A stretch of DNA of 64,000 nt, taken from Somniosus microcephalus (taxonomy: Eukaryota). This document shows positions 4,265-47,470 of this stretch, piece by piece; within the stretch, counting starts at the first letter, position 1; each line of letters starts with the position of its first letter. The stretch covers positions 54,374,001-54,438,000 of the forward strand of contig CM126222.1 in NCBI GenBank assembly GCA_052327205.1, written 5' to 3'. Under the pieces are notes generated by a model that saw only the letters and a program-made list of their open reading frames with translations, was not told the origin of the DNA and made no database searches. The position numbers and the translations under genes are program-made.

Positions 4265-5312
4265 TTGATGTTTAGGTCAATACGGGTTTCCCCCCCCCCC
4301 CCCCCCGCCAAGAACACAACAAAAAGTTAACTTTATTGTTTCAAAAGAAGTCTAAAGATATGGCAGCAAGACGGTTAACAGGGATGACCTATTTCAGAGG
4401 CTCTGCTTTCCAACTTTTTAACGCTGAGTCACCTGCTGCTTCCAAGTCCTGTCAGGAGCTGGCGCAGGGTGGAAAGGGCTGGTCTTCACATTTTAGCCTG
4501 AAGACAGCAGAGCCAGGTGTGGAGACTGCTGTGTCTGTAGGTGTAGGAATGTAAACCACATCCAGCAGAATCATCTCATTGCTATTCAGCAGGCACAAGG
4601 CCTGATGTGGGCGGTAGCTGGCAACAGGTCTACAAAACTCAGATCACTTCCTTACTTCTATACTGAATTAATCTCAGACTCTTAAAGCCGCATGAGTCGG
4701 TAGGAAGTTATTATTAACATTTGCTGCAAATGGTGTGTGCCACATTAACACTTTAAAGACCAAAATGGCACTTTTGGGCTAAGATAAAAATAGAAAGATG
4801 TGAATACATCTTATCTCAGTTTATTAAGACAACGTTGCGAATTGGTGCATTCTCTGGTTCAGCGCCCGCGTTTATCTTAAATCTGCTTTACAATATTCAG
4901 TACTAGAAATTTGGCAACACTTATTTTCTCTGGTATAACATTTTCTAATTCAATATTTTCAAAAGTTACCCTGCATTCAAAGAGTTAAAGCAGACCTGAC
5001 TCTTGGCAAGCCAGGTGAATTGTTGGGCGAATGTTTGACAAGGCAGCGAATGGGGGAGGGGAAAGCAGCTGTGTTTCATTTTCATTGCAATGTTATCACA
5101 GGCAGGCGACACAATGACATGTTTGTGATGCAGGGACGCATGTGGCCTGCAGAGACCCGGGAGTCTGGGAATTTAAAAATGGGAGAAACCAATAGCGTTT
5201 TGGACAAAATAGAGGTTACAGTATCATGAATTTTTCAAAGTCATTCACTATATACTGCAGCTGTGATGTTGCTTGTTGCAGCCTGCGTGGAGTTTGTGTT
5301 CAGACTGCATCC

Positions 5313-7880
5313 AGCCTGTATTCAGTCTGCACCAAGCTTGTATTCAGTCTGCACCAAGCCTGTATTCAGTCTGCACCAAGCCTGTATTCAGTCTGCACCA
5401 AGCCTGTATTCAGAATGCACCAAGCCTGTATTCAGTCTGCACCAAGCCTGTATTCAGAATGCACCAAGCCTGTATTCAGTCTGCACCAAGCTTGTATTCA
5501 GTCTGCACCAAGCCTGTGTTCAGTCTGCACCAAGCTTGTATTCAGTCTCCACCAAGCCTATATTCAGTCTGCACCAAGCCTGTATTCAGTCTGCACCAAG
5601 CCTGTATTCAGTCTGCACCAAGCCTGTATTCAGTCTGCACCAAGCTTGTATTCAGTCTGCACCAAGCCTGTATTCAGCCTGCACCTAGCCTGTATTCAGT
5701 CTGCACCAAGCCTGTATTCAGTCTGCACCAAGCCTGTATTCAGTCTGCACCAAGCCTGTATTCAGCCTGCACCAAGCCTGTATTCAGTCTGCACCAAGCC
5801 TGTATTCAGTCTGCACCGAGCCTGTATTCAGCCTGCACCAAGCCTGTATTCAGTCTACACCGAGCCTGTATTCAGCCTGCACCAAGCTTGTATTCAGTCT
5901 GCACCAAGCCTGTATTCAGCCTGCACCAAGCCTGTATTCAGTCTGCACCAAGCCTGTATTCAGTCTGCACCAAGCTTGTATTCAGTCTGCACCAAGCCTG
6001 TGTTCAGTCTGCACCAAGCCTGTGTTCAGTCTGCACCAAGCCTGTGTTCAGTCTGCACCAAGCCTGTATTCAGTCTGCACCAAGCCTGTATTCAGTGCAC
6101 CAAGCTTGTATTCAGTCTGCACCAAGCCTGTATTCAGAATGCACCAAGCCTGTATTCAGTCTGCACCAAGCCTGTATTCAGTCTGCACCAAGCCTGCATT
6201 CAGTCTGCACCAAGCCTGTATTCAGTCTGCACCAAGCCTGTATTCAGTCTGCACCAAGCCTGTGTTCAGTCTGCACCAAGCCTGTATTCAGCCTGCACCA
6301 AGCCTGTATTCAGTCTGCACCAAGCCTGTATTCAGCCTGCACCAAGCTTGTATTCAGTCTGCACCAAGCCTGTATTCAGCCTGCACCAAGCTTGTATTCA
6401 GTCTGCACCAAGCTTGTATTCAGCCTGCACCGAGCCTGTATTCAGTCTGCACCAAGCCTGTATTCAGTCTGCACCAAGCCTGTATTCAGTCTGCACCAAG
6501 CCTGTATTCAGTCTGCACCAAGCCTGTATTCAGTCTGCACCAAGCCTGTATTCAGTCTGCACCAAGCCTGTATTCAGTCTGCACCAAGCCTGTATTCAGT
6601 CTGCACCAAGCCTGTATTCAGTCTGCACCAAGCCTGTATTCAGTCTGCACCAAGCCTGTATTCAGCCTGCACCAAGCCTGTATTCAGTCTGCACCAAGCC
6701 TGTATTCAGTCTGCACCAAGCCTGTATTCAGTCTGCACCAAGCCTGTATTCAGCCTGCACCAAGCTTGTATTCAGTCTGCACCAAGCCTGTATTCAGTCT
6801 GCACCGAGCCTGTATTCAGTCTGCACCGAGCCTGTATTCAGAATGCACCAAGCCTGTATTCAGCCTGCACCAAGCCTGTATTCAGTCTGCACCGAGCCTG
6901 TATTCAGAATGCACCAAGCCTGTATTCAGTCTGCACCGAGCCTATATTCAGTCTGCACCAAGCCTGTATTCAGCCTGCACCGAGCCTGTATTCAGTCTGC
7001 ACTGAGCCTGTATTCAGAATGCACCAAGCCTGTATTCAGAATGCACCAAGCCTGTATTCAGTCTGCACCAAGCCTGTATTCAGTCTGCACCGAGCCTATA
7101 TTCAGTCTGCACCGAGCCTGTATTCAGCCTGCACCAAGCCTGTATTCAGCCTGCACCAAGCCTGTATTCAGTCTGCACCAAGCCTGTATTCAGTCTGCAC
7201 CAAGCCTGTATTCAGCCTGCACCAAGCCTGTATTCAGTCTGCACCAAGCCTGTATTCAGCCTGCACCGAGCCTGTATTCAGCCTGCACCGAGCCTGTATT
7301 CAGCCTGCACCAAGCCTGTATTCAGTCTGCACCGAGCCTGTATTCAGTCTGCACCGAGCCTGTATTCAGTCTGCACCGAGCCTGTATTCAGTCTGCACCG
7401 AGCCTGTATTCAGTCTGCACCGAGCCTGTATTCAGTCTGCACCAAGCCTGTATTCAGTCTGCACCAAGCCTGTATTCAGAATGCACCAAGCCTGTATTCA
7501 GCCTGCACCAAGCCTGTGTTCAGTCTGCACCAAGCCTGTATTCAGTCTGCACCAAGCCTGTATTCAGCCTGCACCAAGCCTGTATTCAGTCTGCACCAAG
7601 CCTGTATTCAGTCTGCACCAAGCCTGTATTCAGTCTGCACCAAGCCTGTATTCAGTCTGCACCAAGCCTGTATTCAGTCTGCACCGAGCCTGTATTCAGT
7701 CTGCACCGAGCCTGTATTCAGTCTGCACCGAGCCTGTATTCAGTCTGCACCGAGCCTGTATTCAGTCTGCACCGAGCCTGTATTCAGTCTGCACCGAGCC
7801 TGTATTCAGTCTGCACCGAGCCTGTATTCAGTCTGCACCGAGCCTGTATTCAGTCTGCACCGAGCCTGTATTCAGTCTGC
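5313..7880. repeat. 22-bp minisatellite, about 117 copies, unit AGCCTGTATTCAGTCTGCACCA
   Basis: Directly visible tandem array. The 22-aa periodicity of the ORFs equals three 22-nt units. A degenerate extra unit precedes it at ~5290-5312. Confidence 0.98.
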
Positions 7881-9571
7881 AGGGCTGTGAAACAGATGCT
7901 ATCATCTTGGACCACCAGTGACTGTTGTGGAAAAGATGATAAATTGCATAAATTGCATATCACAGAAACACTGACAATATTCATCTTGAGATGCTACTGA
8001 TCTTATCAGAAGCAAGCTTAATTGCTAAAATACGCAGCAGAAAATGGGCAATATACTGATATACTGGAGTACTGTGAAATATAAATCCATTGTGATTATG
8101 CCATATTTGTGTCTCTTATCGTGACCATTGTAAACTGGAGTGATTTTGACAGTAACAATGGCTGGATTAGACAGATCACGAGAAAACTAATTTACTTGAA
8201 CAAAGAAGGTTCAAGTTACTAAAAGATTGCAGAACTGATTGTATTTGTAAAAACACAAAAAGTGTTATTTCACAGAACTTCAAAATAATGATTGTGCTAG
8301 CACCCATAATACTTGAGGTCAGTCAAATGTGATCAAATTCACTCAGATTTTTGAACTTTTGTTAACGGCACATTTTCTTTGTGATAACACACAGCTTCAG
8401 ATACTCCTGCAGGCCAACAGTATCTTAAATGTGAGGGGATTCATTTTAAAATGTCATGTTAATAATTAAAGTTTTGTGGAAATGCATTTAATTGACTTAA
8501 TTTGTGGTCCTTACCACTTTAATAACAACTTGTAGCTCTGGCATCTTAGTACAAATGGTGTGCTGCAGTACAGTAATTATAGACAAGGGCTGTATAATAT
8601 ATATAAAATGAATACAGAAGAAGGAGGTTTCTGAATAGGAAAGATACACGTGTGACCCTGAAGCCTTTAAGTATTAATGAATATTATGATGCTGCTTCAA
8701 GGGGCGAAGGTGGTTGAAACAGGTGTTCAGGATGAATTTTTTCATTGGTTTCTAACTCTTCAGGGATCTGCTCTGAGTAAAAAGGGTCCATGTTCTTAAT
8801 TTAACATTGCACACAAATCAATAACAAGCCATTTATTTGCTAATTTATTTTCTTTCTTTATGTGCAATGTATCTGGGAAATTGCCCGGCATGACTAAAAG
8901 TTAACCAATTTGTCTTCTATAGAAGTCTAACTTCAAAATTTGTCTCGCTTCCATTTCAATCTGATATTAAACTTCGTAATCTTCGCAGTTTGAATAGCGT
9001 CGACGACAAACAGTTAACAGGTACAGCTGACTGGATGGGGAGTAGTGTTGGCAAAGCTTCTTTTGGATTGAGGAATTTAGAAATGGTGGGCAGGGAAAGC
9101 ACAGAATAGTACAAATTCTAAATTCCAGAATCTCAAAAGAACTCTGTTAACGAGTTCTGATATGGACCATACTGTCTATCGACCGTCTTGAGCTATAGTA
9201 AACATTAATTATAGTCAAATAATGAAGCTGTTACTAATAAATAAGGAAATAAGTTTGAGTGTAAATTATGAATTTGTGGATTAATTTTTAGTACTAATTC
9301 TATAATTTGAACCCAGAAGCCGTTTGAATTCTGGATGAGGACAATTTTTTCCTGCCAGTTTCTCCCCATCTCTTGCTGAGCTATAATGACACCGATACTG
9401 ACCATCCTCATTTACCTCGCTCAACGGGCTATTCTACATGTGGTAATCTGGGCTATTTGACTGTGGTGGGTGTCATGTAGTGCCCACACATGCGCATGTT
9501 CCAGCACAGGATGCTTCTACTCTGTAGGCCAGACATGTTAATGGTCAACTGTGGCATGCAGTTTACTTACT

Positions 9572-9798
9572 GAAATAACAACAGAAAACGCTGGAAAAAC
9601 TCAGCAGGCCAGGCAACATCCGTGGAGAGAAAATAGAGTCAATGTTTCAGGTCGAAGACCCTTCGTCAGGACTTCGACCTGAAACGTTGACTCTGTTTTT
9701 CTCTCCACGGATGTTGCCCTGGCCTGCTGAGTTTTTCCAGCATTTTCTGTTGGTATTTCGGATTTCCAGCATCTGCGGTATTTTGCTATCATATTAAG
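9572..9798. mobile_element. Palindromic Penelope-like element (PLE) terminal-repeat relic
   Basis: Arms 9572-~9658 and ~9673-9759 are reverse complements, followed by a short tail. Possible degenerate TSD AGTTTACTTACTG / AGTTTATTCACTG (9560-9572, 9799-9811). Related copy at 33672-33887. Confidence 0.7.
9637..9673 (-). ncRNA. Minimal type I hammerhead ribozyme motif (probably decayed)
   Basis: Minus strand reads AGUC-CUGACGA-A-GGGUC-UUC-GACCU-GAAA-CAUU-GACU: CUGANGA and GAAA cores, 5-bp stem II, 4-bp stem I. The opposite arm keeps GAAACGUUGAC, suggesting CAUU is a CpG-decayed CGUU. Confidence 0.6.
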
Positions 9799-10910
9799 AG
9801 TTTATTCACTGCCTTTGCTGAGATCAGCTAAGTTATGTGGACAGTTCTAATCAAATCCTCTTGTGGGCGGGTGTCTTGATACGGCTAACTGTAGGAGTTC
9901 ATAATGCATTGTTATAATCATTTAACCTATTTGGTGACAATAAAAAGGATGTGATTTAAAAAAGGTAAAGGAGAATAAGAAAAGGTGACAGCACTTTAAG
10001 GGCGACCAGCATAGGCCATTCTGGGGAAAGTCTCATAAGATTATTGCCAGACTTCACATGAAATGTATTTTGTTTGGACTAAAACACGTAACTTTTGGGA
10101 GTGGGGGCTCTGCACCCTGAAGATTCTGCTTCGGTCCTATGTTTTAATTTTTACATTTGCCGTTGCCTCTGGTGACTGATGGAATGAGCAGCTCATGCAG
10201 CGATGCTCTGTATTGCTGGAGGCTCAAGCAACCACCATTGGTGCCCCCTAAGGTCGAGGCTACTGCTGGCTATAGCGCTGTACCATCAATGCAGCATGAG
10301 CCTCCACAAAAGCTTTGCTGCGTAACGTAACTTTCCGCTGCTGATGCACAGGAAAGGAAGCCAGGACTGCAAACCTAAACATAGATTAATCCCGAGGTGG
10401 AGACGCTTTGTTCTAGGACTTTATCTGCCCTGCTGGAGTCCCTTATCTCCGATTTGATATTCTCGAGGTTTCCTCCCGCGCTTTTATGCTGTGGTGTTCT
10501 GCAGTTCAGTGCAGAGCTGAAAGTCGATGCTATCAGATCAGTGGAGAGCCTTTAGCAGCACACGTAAACCTTTAAAATTATTATCGTCTGCTCAGGAACA
10601 AGAAGTGGTCCGACCGCTTTCCAGAATCAGTCCTTTTAGTGATAAGAAATGTTAATGTCTCCCTCAAAACAAAGCAGGCTTATAATGAGGGGATGGTCCC
10701 AGTAGTTAGTTTAGAATGTGGCCTGTTTGTTACTTAAATGCCTATGTTATCTGCATATGTATATCTAAATAAAGAAGTTCATCTGCATAACAACCTGCTT
10801 ATTGCTTTATGTTGGTGGTGGAGGATTTCACTACAGCCCTGAAAACCTACTGCAGTTCCAGGGCTGCCCCGGAGGGCTGGATGGGTAAATTTACCATGCT
10901 TCACTCAGCC

Positions 10911-22583: not shown

Positions 22584-22754
22584 GCAACGCACTGATGGGA
22601 AACTCATCAGCCACATTCATGGGAAGTTTCCTAGCCAGCAGCTTGGGGTCAGCACCTGCTCATCCTGCGGGACCTACGTCTTCCCCCTCCGAGCCCGCCT
22701 TCCGAAGTCCCCACTCGGCGACATCACAGATCTGGTTTTCCCACTCCCACGAAG
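22584..22754 (+). CDS. BAHCC1: Internal coding exon (probably second coding exon) of BAH domain and coiled-coil containing 1
   Basis: Flanked by cag| and G|gtaagg. 171 bp, symmetric phase 1. Translation (G)[56 protein letters not shown] matches my recollection of the human BAHCC1 N-terminus ([21 protein letters not shown]...[10 protein letters not shown]) better than its paralogue TNRC18. Confidence 0.93.
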
Positions 22755-26608: not shown

Positions 26609-27392
26609 GGCCCCGATATTAACGGGGAGCTGGGGCGAGTGCTGGGGAGGCTGAAATTAGCCAAAGAAACCGGCAAGACCCGGGGTGTGGAGGCCCTGCT
26701 GATCTTAACGCCAGTACCTCATTCATATAGTGTAGGTTCGTCTCCCATCCAGCCAAATGGACAGCCTGGCCGGCAGTGGGAAGGAACACTGGCAGGAGGC
26801 CAGGGATGGTCCAAAGATGTGCGGGTTAGGTTGATTGGCCATGATAAAAAAAAAAATTGGCCCTTAGTGTTAGGGGGGATTAATGCGTGGGGTTACGGGG
26901 TTACAGGGATAGGGCTTGGGTGGGATGGCTGTCGGTGTAGGGACCGGGTGTTAGGGTTTGGATGATCAGCCATGATCTCGTTGAATGGCGGAGCAGGCTC
27001 GAAGGGCCGAATGGCCTACTCCTGCTCCTATCTTCTATGTTTCTATGTCCCCGGCACTGGAAAGGCAGCATCAGATACAGGCCATGATCGGAGGGCGGGG
27101 CGGGGTGGTATCGGGTGTAGCGGGAGGGAGGCTGGTTGTCGGGAGGAGGGGAGGCTCCCCATCACTTACTGCCAAACTTAAGTTGCTGCTTCATTGATGT
27201 CATCAGGCCGCGACTTTGGTATGTTAATTAGGCCCCCGCCTGCCTTTTGTGGAATCCTCGTCCATTGTCTGATTTCTTCACATTAAAATATAAAGGGGTG
27301 AGAATGAGATCGGGTTGCCCAACCCTGATACTTTAACCCCCTGACCCTCTCCCGCCCATCGGTGGGAGTGGGTAGGGGTTAAACTCAAGGCC
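26609..27392. mobile_element. Harbinger-like MITE with a nested SINE
   Basis: TIRs GGCCCCGATATTAAC and GTTAAACTCAAGGCC. TSD ATT (26606-26608, 27393-27395). Confidence 0.7.
26809..27048 (+). mobile_element. 5'-truncated HE1/V-SINE-like body joined to a CR1 3' tail
   Basis: 26809-26940 matches the SINE at ~29410-29520. 26957-27048 matches the CR1 3' UTR at ~47382-47470. Confidence 0.75.
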
Positions 27393-27421
27393 ATTGATTC
27401 ATTCACCAGAGTGCTCGAACC

Positions 27422-28467
27422 AGATGGTGGAAGGTTGTTTTTGTGACTGGAAGCCTGTGTCTAGTGGGGTACCACAGGGATTGGTGCTGGGTCCCTTGCT
27501 GTTTGTGGTCTACATTAATGATTTGGATGTGAATGTAAAAGGTCTGATCAGTAAGTTCGCAGATGACACGAAAATTGGTGGGGTGGCAAATAGCGAGGTG
27601 GGAAGCCTCAGGCTACAGGACGATATAGATGGGTTGGTCAGATGGGCGGAACAGTGGCAAATGGAATTTAACCCTGAAAAGTGTGAGGTGATGCATTTTG
27701 GACGGACTAACAAGGCAAGGGAATACACAATGAATGGTAAGACCCTAGGAAAGACAGAGGATCAGAGGGACCTTGGTGTGCATGTACATAAATCCCTGAA
27801 GGCAGCAGAACAGGTGGATAAGGTGGTTAAAAGGGCATATGGGATACTTGCCTTCATTAGCCGAGGCATAGAATATAAGAGCAGGGAGGTTATGATGGAG
27901 CTGTACAAAATGCTGGTAAGGCCACAGCTGGAGTACTGTGTGCAGTTCTGGTCGCCACACTATAGGAAGGATGTGATTGCTTTGGAGAGGGTGCAGAGGA
28001 GATTTACCAGGATGTTACCTGGGCTGGAGCGCTTCAGCTATGAAGAAAGACTGGACAGGCTGGGGTTGTTTTCCTTGGAGCAGAGAAGGCTGAGGGGGGA
28101 CCTGATTGAGGTATACAAAATTATGAGGGGCATAGATAGGGTGGATAGAAAGGAACTTTTCCCCTTAGTAGAGGGGTCAATAACAAGGGGGCATAGATTC
28201 AAGGTAAGGGGCAGGAGATTTAGAGGGGATTTGAGGAAAAACTTTTTCACCCAGAGGGTGGTTGGAATCTGGAACTCACTGCCTGAAAGGGTGGTAGAGG
28301 CAGGAACCCTCACAACATTCAAGAAGCATTTGGATGAGCACTTGAAATGCCATAGCATACAAGGCTACGGGCCAAGTGCTGGAAAATGGGATTAGATTAG
28401 ACAGGGCTTGATGGCTGGTGCGGACGCGATGGGCTGAAGGGCCTCTTTCTGTGCTGTATAACTCTAT
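27422..28467 (+). mobile_element. 5'-truncated CR1 LINE: reverse transcriptase C-terminal half (open frame to 28395) plus 3' UTR
   Basis: RT motifs GVPQGLVLGPLLF..YINDL and KFADDTK, plus CR1 motifs QMEFNPEKCEVMHFG, LVRPQLEYCVQFWSP and RRLRGDLIEVYK. No endonuclease or RT N-terminus, so it is non-autonomous. Confidence 0.95.
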
Positions 28468-32903: not shown

Positions 32904-33671
32904 ATGGTGCTGTCTACAGTGATGCATAAAAACCGGTAGATCCGGCCAAGGGCAGTACCTATACAGTGTGAAGGACTGAAATAACTCATCTCCGTTGTTC
33001 CATTCTAAAGAACTATTACCAAGTATCGCTGTAGGCTTTTACATATAATGCTTGAAAATCAACCCCTTCAATATGCGTGGCAACCAAATCATGTAGTAAA
33101 GATTCTGATACAATAATTTTTCATGTTTGTCACTTACCCATTTTAATTTAAGAGCCTGAGAAAGTGTGGGATAAGGACAAGAAATTTAGCCCATGGTGCC
33201 TGCTCTCTCTGCAGATCATGGGCAATCTGTCCATGGATTCGGACACGGGTTCTGCTCCTGTTTAATCTCCATATGGAAAGTCCTGCAAAATGTTCCCTGA
33301 CTCTGACAAATGATCAAGCAAAACTCCAGTATATCTGCCCACAGCTCAACTATTCATCTCTGGCTGCCTGCTCTCCACAGGCAACACCCTCTCCTCAACA
33401 CCAGAAACATCGGAACCATTGCGCCCCACGGAGTGTTTGATAATCTCGGTCTACACATACCCCTATAACCCTCATTTCCAACCAGATAATGATCCAGCTA
33501 TTTTTTGAAGGAGTTAATTAAGACATCATTAACTGCCTTTTGCTGAGAGTCTGTTCCAGATCTTCATTACTCATTGGGGGGGGGAAAAATCTAATGTACA
33601 GTCTTGACTACACTCTAGTTTTGTGTTTACTATGGAAGCTAAATCATCTGCTCACATCTATATCCCCTGTA

Positions 33672-33887
33672 ATAAAAACAGAAAATGCTGGAGATACTCA
33701 GCAGGTCAGGCAGCATCTGTGGAGAGAGAAACAGAGTTAACGTTTCCGGTCGAACGTTCTAATGAAAGTTCATCGACCTGAAACGTTAACTCTGTTTCTC
33801 TCTTCACAGATGCTGCCTGACCTGCTGAGTATCTCCAGCATTTTCTGTTTTTATTTCAGATTTCCAGCATCTACAGTATTTTCTTTT
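33672..33887. mobile_element. Palindromic Penelope-like element terminal-repeat relic
   Basis: Near-perfect inverted arms ~33671-33753 and ~33773-33855, plus a tail. 15-bp TSD TCTATATCCCCTGTA / TCTATATCACCTGTA (33657-33671, 33888-33902). Confidence 0.78.
33756..33790 (+). ncRNA. Minimal hammerhead ribozyme motif with mutated core
   Basis: GUU-CUAAUGA-A-AGUUC-AUC-GACCU-GAAA-CGUU-AAC. The CUGANGA core has a G-to-A change and stem II has one mismatch. Confidence 0.5.
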
Positions 33888-45154: not shown

Positions 45155-47059
45155 GAAGTGCATGTTCTCAGTCATAAGTGATGGGTCAGGACCATAGTCC
45201 AGCGGACCAAGACCTTCTTATTCAGTTGGTCATGGATCAGTGACAAGAAAGTGAGGCATTTTGAACCTACTTTAATTTCCCGCATTTTGATATCAAGGAA
45301 ACAGAGCATGATTCTTCGTCGAGAGATCAGTTATTGTTTATACTGAGCATTCTTGTCTCCTGCAGACCTAAAAGGGGTTAACCATGTCACCGGTGCAAAG
45401 ATATTTCAGACCAGTGGAAAATTCTGAGTGTTATTATAACATTAGCACCCTAGTGACTGAATGTCATTGTGAACTTGTGTCTAGCGCTGGAGCAGTCCTG
45501 CAGAGTAAACCGTGGATTGAATCTAATAAACTGTGCATTGTAACTCGGGCTTTGAGGTTTTTCTATTGCACTTATATCAATCTTTACAAAATCACAACGG
45601 ATGTTCAGTCAGGGCAGCATTCAAAAGATTCAACTTGAAGAAATATTTCGCTGCACAAATTTAATTTAGCTTTGTTAAAAGCACTTTTTAAATTTTTTAT
45701 ATATAATTGGATCATTTTTTGCACTGGATGTATTTATCTAGCATTCAAAGGACAGTAAACAAACTGGTTGCTGCTCCTGCTTTAAAGAAAAAAAACCCTG
45801 CTAGTTTGTCCAATTTGGCAGCGTGGAAAGGAGATAGGGAAGTGATGCTGTTTTGTGGGAATGCACTGGGGCTGTGCATTCGCCAGTTTATACCTGACCG
45901 CAGAATGCTTTTCACCGGGTGCAAAAATGAATCAGCGTATTGAAGGAACTGAACAGCCGCCAAAGCGCAAACAGAGCAATGTTGAACAAGTAAATATTTA
46001 GCGACATGAACAGTTAGATAACTCCCTTGTAGTAATTTCTTCTCTGAATCTCTAATACATACAAACCCCGCCCCCTGCTTTGCTGATTGTGAAGGAATTG
46101 ATAAATATTGTTCTGCTAGCTTTTCAAGATTATTAGATCTAATATATGAAATGGTGGCAATCGAAGGAATGTCGTGTTACATCTCAAAGTGTGGTGTTAG
46201 GTTTCACAATGAAACTTCTTTAGACATTTTAGAAAATTGTATAATATTAAAAATGACTGAAAACAAACACATTTTTCTTAAGCTGAGCATTATCTGCACA
46301 CATTCCTCAAGTGTCTGAGGAATATGCTTTCTTATTGACTGGCAATAGTACTAAGTTATCATCGTGGCCTGTTTCATTGTACACATTTGATACTTTATTG
46401 CATTTTTCCACTAAACCTTCATCCGAGTTAGTGATACTATAATTTGTACCATTCTATGTCCTTTTGTTCTGCAACTTGAATGGCTATGTACCTGTTTCTA
46501 AAGGGACCATTCCACCTTGATTAATTAAAAAAATATATTTTTAATAATGAAAATGGTAATTATTGGGCTCTTGTTCCTCTGGGATGGATCTCTTTCCAAG
46601 AAAGAAACTTTGTCTGATCGCATTGCTATCAAAGTCTGGTTTTATTAAAGTTGTTGTACAATTCTTTGCACGACTTCCTCACCAAGATCTTCATCCTTCT
46701 CCTTCCTGAGCTGCTTTGCCAAGCAACTCCTTATCCTCTGTGATTTTAAGCTACTGCCAAAATTCCCCTTCTCCCTGTCCTTTTGAATTCTCTGTCCTCC
46801 TGACCTCACTGAATGTCAGCCCTTCACAAAAAAACCTCTTGCATCCAAAGCTCACCCCTCCACCGCATCAGTGCAGGGGGAAGAGGAGTGAAAGGGAATT
46901 GGTGTTATCGGTCTCTTCCAGCTACACCCGCCAGTTTGCATGGTCATAGGATGGCATTAACAGCAGCTTTTGACCGCGTTCTTAGCCTGACCTCTGCTGC
47001 CTCCCAGGTAAAGGTGATTTTTGGTCACAAAAGGGGCTTTTAATGGTATGAGATCCCCT

Positions 47060-47470
47060 CTGGAGTTTAGAAGAATGAGAGGGGATCTCATTGAAACTTA
47101 CAAAATTCTAACAGGACTAGACAGACTAGATGCAGGAAGGATGTTCCCGATGACCGGGGAGTCCAGAACCAGGGGCCATAGTCTAAGGATAAGGGGTAAG
47201 CCATTTAGGACAGAGATGAGGAGGGATTTCTTCACCCTGAGAGTGGTGAACCTGTGGAATTCTCTACCACAGAAGGCAGTTGAGGCTAAAATATTAAATA
47301 TATTCAAGAATGAGTTAGATATATTTCTTAAGGCTAAAGGATTCAAGGGATATGGGGAGAAAGCAGGGACAGGGTACTGAATTTGGATGATCAGCCATGA
47401 TCTCATTGAATGGCGGAGCAGGCTCGAGGGGCTGAATGGCCTACTCCTGCTCCTATCTGCTATGTTTCTA
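47060..47470 (+). mobile_element. CR1 LINE 3' fragment
   Basis: Encodes LEFRRMRGDLIETYKIL...RTRGHSLRI...FFTLRVVNLWNSLP, followed by the 3' UTR GATCAGCCATGATC...GAATGGCCTACTCCTGCTCC. Confidence 0.92.

Follow-up and report, generated by a model that had tools for sequence, protein, structure and literature searches.

The long palindrome at 9572–9759 of the 64-kb window (the whole stretch of Somniosus microcephalus DNA that was analysed, 64,000 nucleotides in length) is almost certainly an insertion of a Penelope-like element (PLE). It very probably represents one such insertion with two 5'-truncated, hammerhead-bearing ends lying head to head, likely because both cut strands of the target primed synthesis. 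It is thus a genuine insertion scar, but an ordinary one and of a type already described, and among tens of thousands of insertions a single decayed copy carries little weight. Its family forms a large natural data set on the origin of inverted, one-tailed PLE insertions, and also informs whether the hammerhead serves the PLE or, a possibility raised in PMC8557442, merely parasitises these elements. A one-tail rule among the insertions and the pattern of base pairs at positions 3 and 8 of the ribozyme core are direct tests of those two questions.

Anatomy of the palindrome and its hammerhead motif

The arms were placed by an inverted-repeat comparison of the window sequence (Table 1), and the long palindrome claimed from the sequence alone was recovered as abutting inverted segments of 42, 22 and 31 nt with 95, 100 and 90% complementarity. 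On either strand the palindrome folds as a single long hairpin (-153/-154 kcal/mol, z about -22 to -23), a stability matched by none of 200 shuffles. Its arms correspond to the junction between the pLTR and the open reading frame (ORF) of the element, and in frame the right arm with its tail resembles the first codons of that ORF. The head-to-head junction was read by comparing the window sequence with the parent copies L009, L023 and L036, and both end positions of the left arm recur among other family copies in the positional sample described below. As the right arm starts inside stem II it lacks the CUGA box. It continues unpaired beyond the palindrome into the tail, which agrees in frame with the ORF start of the element and with the bimodal 3' ends of the family, its exact end being uncertain between 9790 and 9796. 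The whole insertion unit is ~225 bp. The candidate duplication at its edges scored 7 in the automatic search, within the range of the controls, and its right boundary is ambiguous because this sequence also resembles the element's own continuation. In the second stub listed in Table 1 the truncation of both arms falls inside the hammerhead region, no CUGA box is intact and the flanking duplication is 14/15 identical.

Table 1. Coordinates, strand and description of the features discussed (. = no single strand)
Feature	Position	Strand	Description
Candidate target-site duplication, left	9560..9572	+	11/13 identical to right copy; degenerate
Left arm	9572..9673	-	5'-truncated PLE copy; starts at hammerhead 5' edge (stem I, AGUC), stops at the short 3' end of the family; genome-wide copies at 92-96% identity
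Minimal type I hammerhead	9637..9673	-	Sequence and 37-mer fold; architecture as in PMC4209133
Stem I	9670-9673/9637-9640	-	Part of hammerhead motif
CUGACGA box	9663-9669	-	
Extra A	9662	-	
Stem II	9657-9661/9649-9653	-	
GAAA box	9645-9648	-	
Loopless stem III, C-A-U-U	9641-9644	-	Predicted cut between 9641 and 9640
G>A change	9643	-	Breaks ACGU palindrome of stem III
Head-to-head junction	9672..9674	.	2-3 nt common to both arms (microhomology)
Right arm	9672..9759	+	Second 5'-truncated PLE copy, start inside stem II, intact GAAACGUUGAC
Tail, right arm only	9760..9796	+	~34 bp, further codons of the element's ORF
Candidate target-site duplication, right	9799..9811	+	Partner of 9560..9572
Second coding exon found, BAHCC1-type host gene	22584..22754	+	Translation and AG/GT ends
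Second head-to-head stub, related PLE subfamily	33671..33884	.	Same architecture, tail on right arm

The minus strand of the motif reads exactly as the sequence-only reading gave it, with its CUGACGA and GAAA boxes, and the 4-bp stem I and 5-bp stem II described there form the minimum-energy fold of the isolated 37-mer (-8.1 kcal/mol). It possesses the CUGANGA and GAAA boxes, helices I and II and the extra base after A9 of a minimal type I hammerhead. Stem I as a by-product of the junction was rejected, AGUC being present in the parent copies. A scan of both strands of the window for CTGA-N-GA...GAAA-NUH gave two matches, this motif and one at 8763 which has no family match. No hammerhead family was among the 14 matches of an Rfam search to E=10, which returned only sub-cut-off, hairpin-shaped families; loopless minimal hammerheads fall outside those models.

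The palindromic 15.2-16.2 positions, which allow a dimeric helix III, are kept in the family (ACGU) and lost in this copy (ACAU). Among the first 100 listed of 154 copies of the same sub-variant, the position corresponding to 9643 is G in 81 and A in 19, and the change here is likely to be CpG decay after insertion. The intact GAAACGUUGAC that the sequence-only reading placed in the other arm is present, but on the plus strand, where it cannot combine with the minus-strand CUGACGA; the two are therefore never both within one RNA. Neither a CUGA nor a UUGA box was found on the plus strand of the palindrome.

Other repeats in the window include a ~2.6 kb tandem repeat at 5270-7900, which is minisatellite-like with several frames open, and LINE-type reverse transcriptase fragments at 27376-28395 and 47018-47380, also common in the sampled loci.

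The parent family and the origin of its head-to-head insertions

A 32-mer from the left arm had 20,820 exact matches in the 6.45-Gb genome (reversed control, 0), and all 40 scored candidates of a genome search with the left arm lay at 91–100% identity. Extending the sequence past the tail leads into an ORF start. Upstream, 3 of the first 30 loci run into a common 3' UTR, two of these reaching reverse transcriptase (RT)/endonuclease (EN) frames, and 7 of the 15 loci extended to 5.2 kb show two same-strand hammerheads 3.05–3.24 kb apart around broken RT/EN frames, with no intact full ORF among the extended loci. Pfam RVT_1 was detected in two of six fragments (E 1.6e-5 and 5.3e-5) and GIY-YIG in two others (E 0.004–0.008), all weak matches under the curated cut-offs. 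When the RT fragment was compared with PDB sequences, no relative emerged. Sister copies contain a DKG motif, and a CX4CxxC linker (CKRRRCNTC) precedes the GIY-YIG motif. A CX2-5CxxC linker between RT and EN is the criterion for Neptune/Nematis elements in PMC8557442, and by this criterion the sequence fits an endonuclease-bearing PLE of Neptune/Nematis type.

The family matches and sister copies bear out the earlier proposal of a PLE minimal type I hammerhead within an inverted-repeat insertion, and the suggested linkage to RT and GIY-YIG ORFs is seen in the long copies, where RT/EN frames lie between two hammerheads. The description of the relic as non-coding is not fully borne out, since in origin the arms take in the opening codons of the ORF.

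A positional sample was taken on contig C1 from 99 of the first 100 listed 32-mer places, not selected on upstream sequence. After dropping L084 (the same place as L083) and L118 and L119 (duplicates of L117), it comprised 90 insertions, namely 70 single copies and 20 head-to-head pairs, 20/90 being a rough rate as pairs are sampled twice as easily and long partners can be missed. L101/L102 later proved to be duplicates and L086/L087 look duplicate too. Counted from the predicted cut, the 3' ends were bimodal, one group at about +60 to +85 and the other, some 34 nt further on, at about +100 to +115; among the single copies 44 ends were short and 26 long. One short and one long (tailed) end were combined in 19 of the 20 pairs. 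Removing the duplicate leaves 18 one-tailed pairs of 19 (P=3.8e-5 against 0.5); without the L140 end at +89 among the long ones, the count is 17 of 19 (P=3.6e-4). Flanking repeats scoring at least 9 accompanied 17/20 pairs and 35/65 single copies (five at locus edges were left out), compared with 14/297 mismatched-flank controls. At L013:1280-1810, short units in an inverted and partial-tandem arrangement, with ~60 bases of ORF start, resemble a small retrozyme-like repeat.

For the origin of these pairs we lean towards a route with two primers. The protein of the element would nick both target strands 9–16 nt apart; one 3' end would begin copying at an inner start site and the other at an outer one, the gap between them forming the tail. 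Each cDNA would stop early, often at the 5' edge of the hammerhead, which is possibly the 5' end of the RNA, and the two cDNAs would then join via a few common bases, such as the 2-3 nt at 9672..9674. Much of this has a precedent in PMC11167929, where the protein of an anole PLE was shown in vitro to cut both strands and to extend them, two internal start sites bound the tail and insertion proceeds without need for hammerhead cleavage; the element in that work belongs to the Poseidon clade, and the family studied here has a Neptune/Nematis-type linker.

The same PLE insertion could also arise if fold-back or self-priming on the first arm, and not a second RNA template, had given rise to the inverted one. 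Fold-back on an antisense template was proposed in PMC3846280 for head-to-head Penelope palindromes, and it would agree with partner arms being mostly of the same subfamily and with the 1–14 bases common to both arms at several junctions. It sits poorly with the arm starts within pairs, which fall at unrelated points of the element, a few to hundreds of bases apart, and with the extension of both strands in vitro (PMC11167929). Alignment was possible for 16 of 19 pairs, in which partner arms differ at 36/160 family-variable positions versus 43/1,078 conserved positions, a difference of 0.225 at variable positions against 0.43 expected for random family members, although the excess over fold-back copying is overstated, CpG sites and badly aligned edge positions being among the variable columns. 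Linked non-CpG subfamily differences, which also count against fold-back, separate the partner arms of L080, L132 and L142; the arms of the palindrome at 9572-9759 differ at one of eight family-variable columns. The sequence differences between partner arms favour, without proving, two templates from one donor, and we consider fold-back unlikely.

5' ends and ribozyme core across the family

The two-primer route places the early stops of the cDNAs often at the hammerhead, and of 110 arms 28 start at -38 to -21 relative to the predicted cut, with four at -70 to -39 and 12 at -20 to +11. The left arm of the palindrome starts on stem I, at -33. A single arm of the 110 starts at the cut site, so RNA cut by the hammerhead was rejected as the usual template. 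The spot where starts pile up reads, in longer copies, as pyrimidines and YAG followed by TY, a sequence that would fit either an initiator (Inr) or a 3' splice site. Both have some precedent, since an Inr-like element was noted in a pLTR (PMC3846280) and the intron end of Drosophila Penelope maps to the 5' end of helix I (PMC4209133). Run-off at the 5' end of the RNA is tentatively favoured as the explanation of the pile-up. Four copies (L131, L140, L112 and L067) start right after the hammerhead-edge AG with a few extra G-rich bases which the flank does not explain; these could derive from an upstream exon's end or be untemplated additions at an RNA 5' end.

These starts also bear on a rival reading, in which the palindrome would spread whole, as a retrozyme- or MITE-like non-autonomous unit in its own right, with the hammerhead processing its RNA. 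Short hammerhead-bearing copies are very abundant, L013 contains a partial tandem of ~200-nt units, a second similar palindrome occurs within the window (33671-33884) and non-LTR retrozymes have been argued to derive from PLE pLTRs (bioRxiv 10.64898/2026.07.22.740005). Against this, arm lengths and junctions vary among the 20 pairs, and because the junctions differ from pair to pair the palindromes must have been rebuilt at each insertion. Given also the near absence of exact cut-site starts, the lack of a tandem array at the palindrome and a hairpin predicted to exclude the ribozyme fold, such a unit is very improbable, and the label "retrozyme-like" given to the relic by the sequence-only reading is not supported.

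Within the 78 arms of the positional sample scored for the core, GAAA..UH was present in 72, GAAACGUH in 59 and CUGANGA in 17, most arms without CUGANGA reading UUGANAA. A consensus lacking CUGANGA had been named beforehand as evidence against a hammerhead; formally this is what we observed, but it does not weigh against the hammerhead reading and strengthens it, because most of the other arms carry a compensatory U3-A8 core. Position 11.1 is C or U across copies, both of which pair with G10.1. Exact genome counts of the 3-8 pair, made for one stem II variant other than the palindrome's own and over copies which are not independent, were 3,614 C-G, 3,410 U-A, 1,228 U-G and 178 C-A. Of the first 100 listed C3-A8 copies 90 have the change at a CpG, as post-insertion decay would predict, and 76 of the first 100 listed U3-G8 copies have one identical core, a pattern to be expected when a subfamily amplifies. 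Thus all three pairing states have spread and the mismatch has not, which suggests selection on the 3-8 pair of the ribozyme. Among hammerhead copies with the common 3' UTR, U3-A8 (46 of 86) clusters by subfamily in a tree that is unrooted and poorly resolved, and hence informative on clustering only and not on the direction of change.

The U3-A8 pair is already known from Schistosoma PLEs (PMC4209133) and from other natural hammerheads, where it was reported to be active (PMC3088659), whereas in pairwise mutagenesis the G:C swap alone rescued the 3-8 pair (PMC9901934). Our literature search found no shark PLE hammerhead and no amplified U3-G8 form, with the qualification that the supplementary data to PMC4209133 and to the retrozyme preprint (bioRxiv 10.64898/2026.07.22.740005), which sampled one chondrichthyan, may cover this family. 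In one subfamily among L154, L160, L161, L052, L053 and L058, hammerhead positions 6-8 are the in-frame AUG of the ORF, and in the subfamily of the palindrome they read ACG. Positions 6-8 are out of frame in subfamilies with a shorter stem II, so the ORF start must lie downstream there. Loss of the AUG may have freed G8 to change.

Activity of minimal hammerheads (min-HHR) is described in PMC4209133 as low and seen in multimers only. The hammerhead of the parent element is likely to be a weak self-cleaving RNA assisted by dimer formation or by protein. Tentatively, and with more doubt than attaches to the insertion route, the stubs may record the cycle of the element as a whole, in the differing start sites of the enzyme's subunits, in run-off at the hammerhead edge and in a core under selection. 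Each of the two subunits of the PLE enzyme would begin at a start site of its own, on its own target strand, giving one tail per insertion, and the ribozyme core would have moved between C3-G8 and U3-A8 through the amplified U3-G8 wobble, while C3-A8 never spread.

Host gene and comparison with known systems

The palindrome sits in the intron preceding the BAHCC1-type exon of Table 1. Further host exons, located by their motifs, lie ~34 kb upstream of the window (L171) and ~6 kb downstream (L178), and a BAH exon lying 128 kb past its end scored 156 bits with BAHCC1 versus 146 bits with TNRC18; from their order and strand we infer that these exons form one plus-strand gene. Close upstream of the BAH exon splice acceptor, L167 contains sequence like the ORF start of the same PLE family. 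The intronic position on the gene's strand supports the earlier suggestion of a hairpin within a BAHCC1-type pre-mRNA. With the host gene on the plus strand, the hammerhead is antisense to this pre-mRNA. In a minus-strand transcript the partner arm would be transcribed first and is predicted to pair with the hammerhead motif; the nine hammerhead stem pairs have a modelled probability of 0.0 within the hairpin, and forcing them would cost 34.5 kcal/mol. Because it is antisense, buried by the hairpin and broken in stem III, this copy is unlikely to cleave, and its hammerhead is with high probability an inert passenger. Co-option by the host as an intronic hairpin or antisense ribozyme regulating the BAHCC1-type gene is scarcely credible even though the plus strand could form a ~88-bp hairpin in the pre-mRNA, a plausible editing substrate, as the insert shows ordinary decay (CpG changes and arm mismatches), is one among thousands of similar inserts and has its ribozyme strand opposite to the gene.

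No RNA data set was listed as containing the stretch. Reads at the palindrome in two RNA-seq runs under the same species label derive from other family copies, the unique flanks having next to no depth and the host exon being barely covered. No read-end pile-up at the palindrome was listed in these runs, and fragmented libraries would not show one. In two runs, whose contigs may derive from the very sample that was assembled, the right junction is spanned with >31 bases on either side and the left junction with fewer.

Our analysis of the palindrome is largely in agreement with published insertion units of EN+ PLEs, which consist of an inverted 5'-truncated copy with a one-sided 30–40 bp tail and a target-site duplication (PMC3846280, PMC8557442). 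The head-to-head inverted copy and one-sided tail are as in Pen2a_Av (PMC3846280) and the scheme of PMC8557442, with a tail of ~34 bp compared with 31 bp in Pen2a_Av (PMC3846280). Units of the Pen2a_Av type also share the first ORF codons inside the pLTR (PMC3846280) and a flanking duplication, which is roughly 9–16 bp in the sister copies of the palindrome. The palindrome differs from them in that its halves are truncated beyond any ORF body or 3' UTR. With the min-HHR of metazoan PLEs (PMC4209133) the family's motif shares the short helix I, the extra base after A9 and the loopless palindromic stem III, although this copy has lost the stem III palindrome. The family's amplified U3-G8 beside both Watson-Crick forms was not found in the available part of PMC4209133.

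Non-LTR retrozymes (bioRxiv 10.64898/2026.07.22.740005) have the same PLE-derived type I hammerhead and likewise no protein coded at the locus, but they form tandem arrays with a complete hammerhead per unit, whereas the palindrome is an inverted pair with one damaged motif. PAc, a Poseidon element of Anolis carolinensis (PMC11167929), differs in the CX4CxxC linker of our family and in the hammerhead 6-8 codon, which is not an in-frame AUG in the subfamilies counted here. It carries the same hammerhead at the pLTR-ORF junction, and the same two 3' ends inside the ORF start define its tail.
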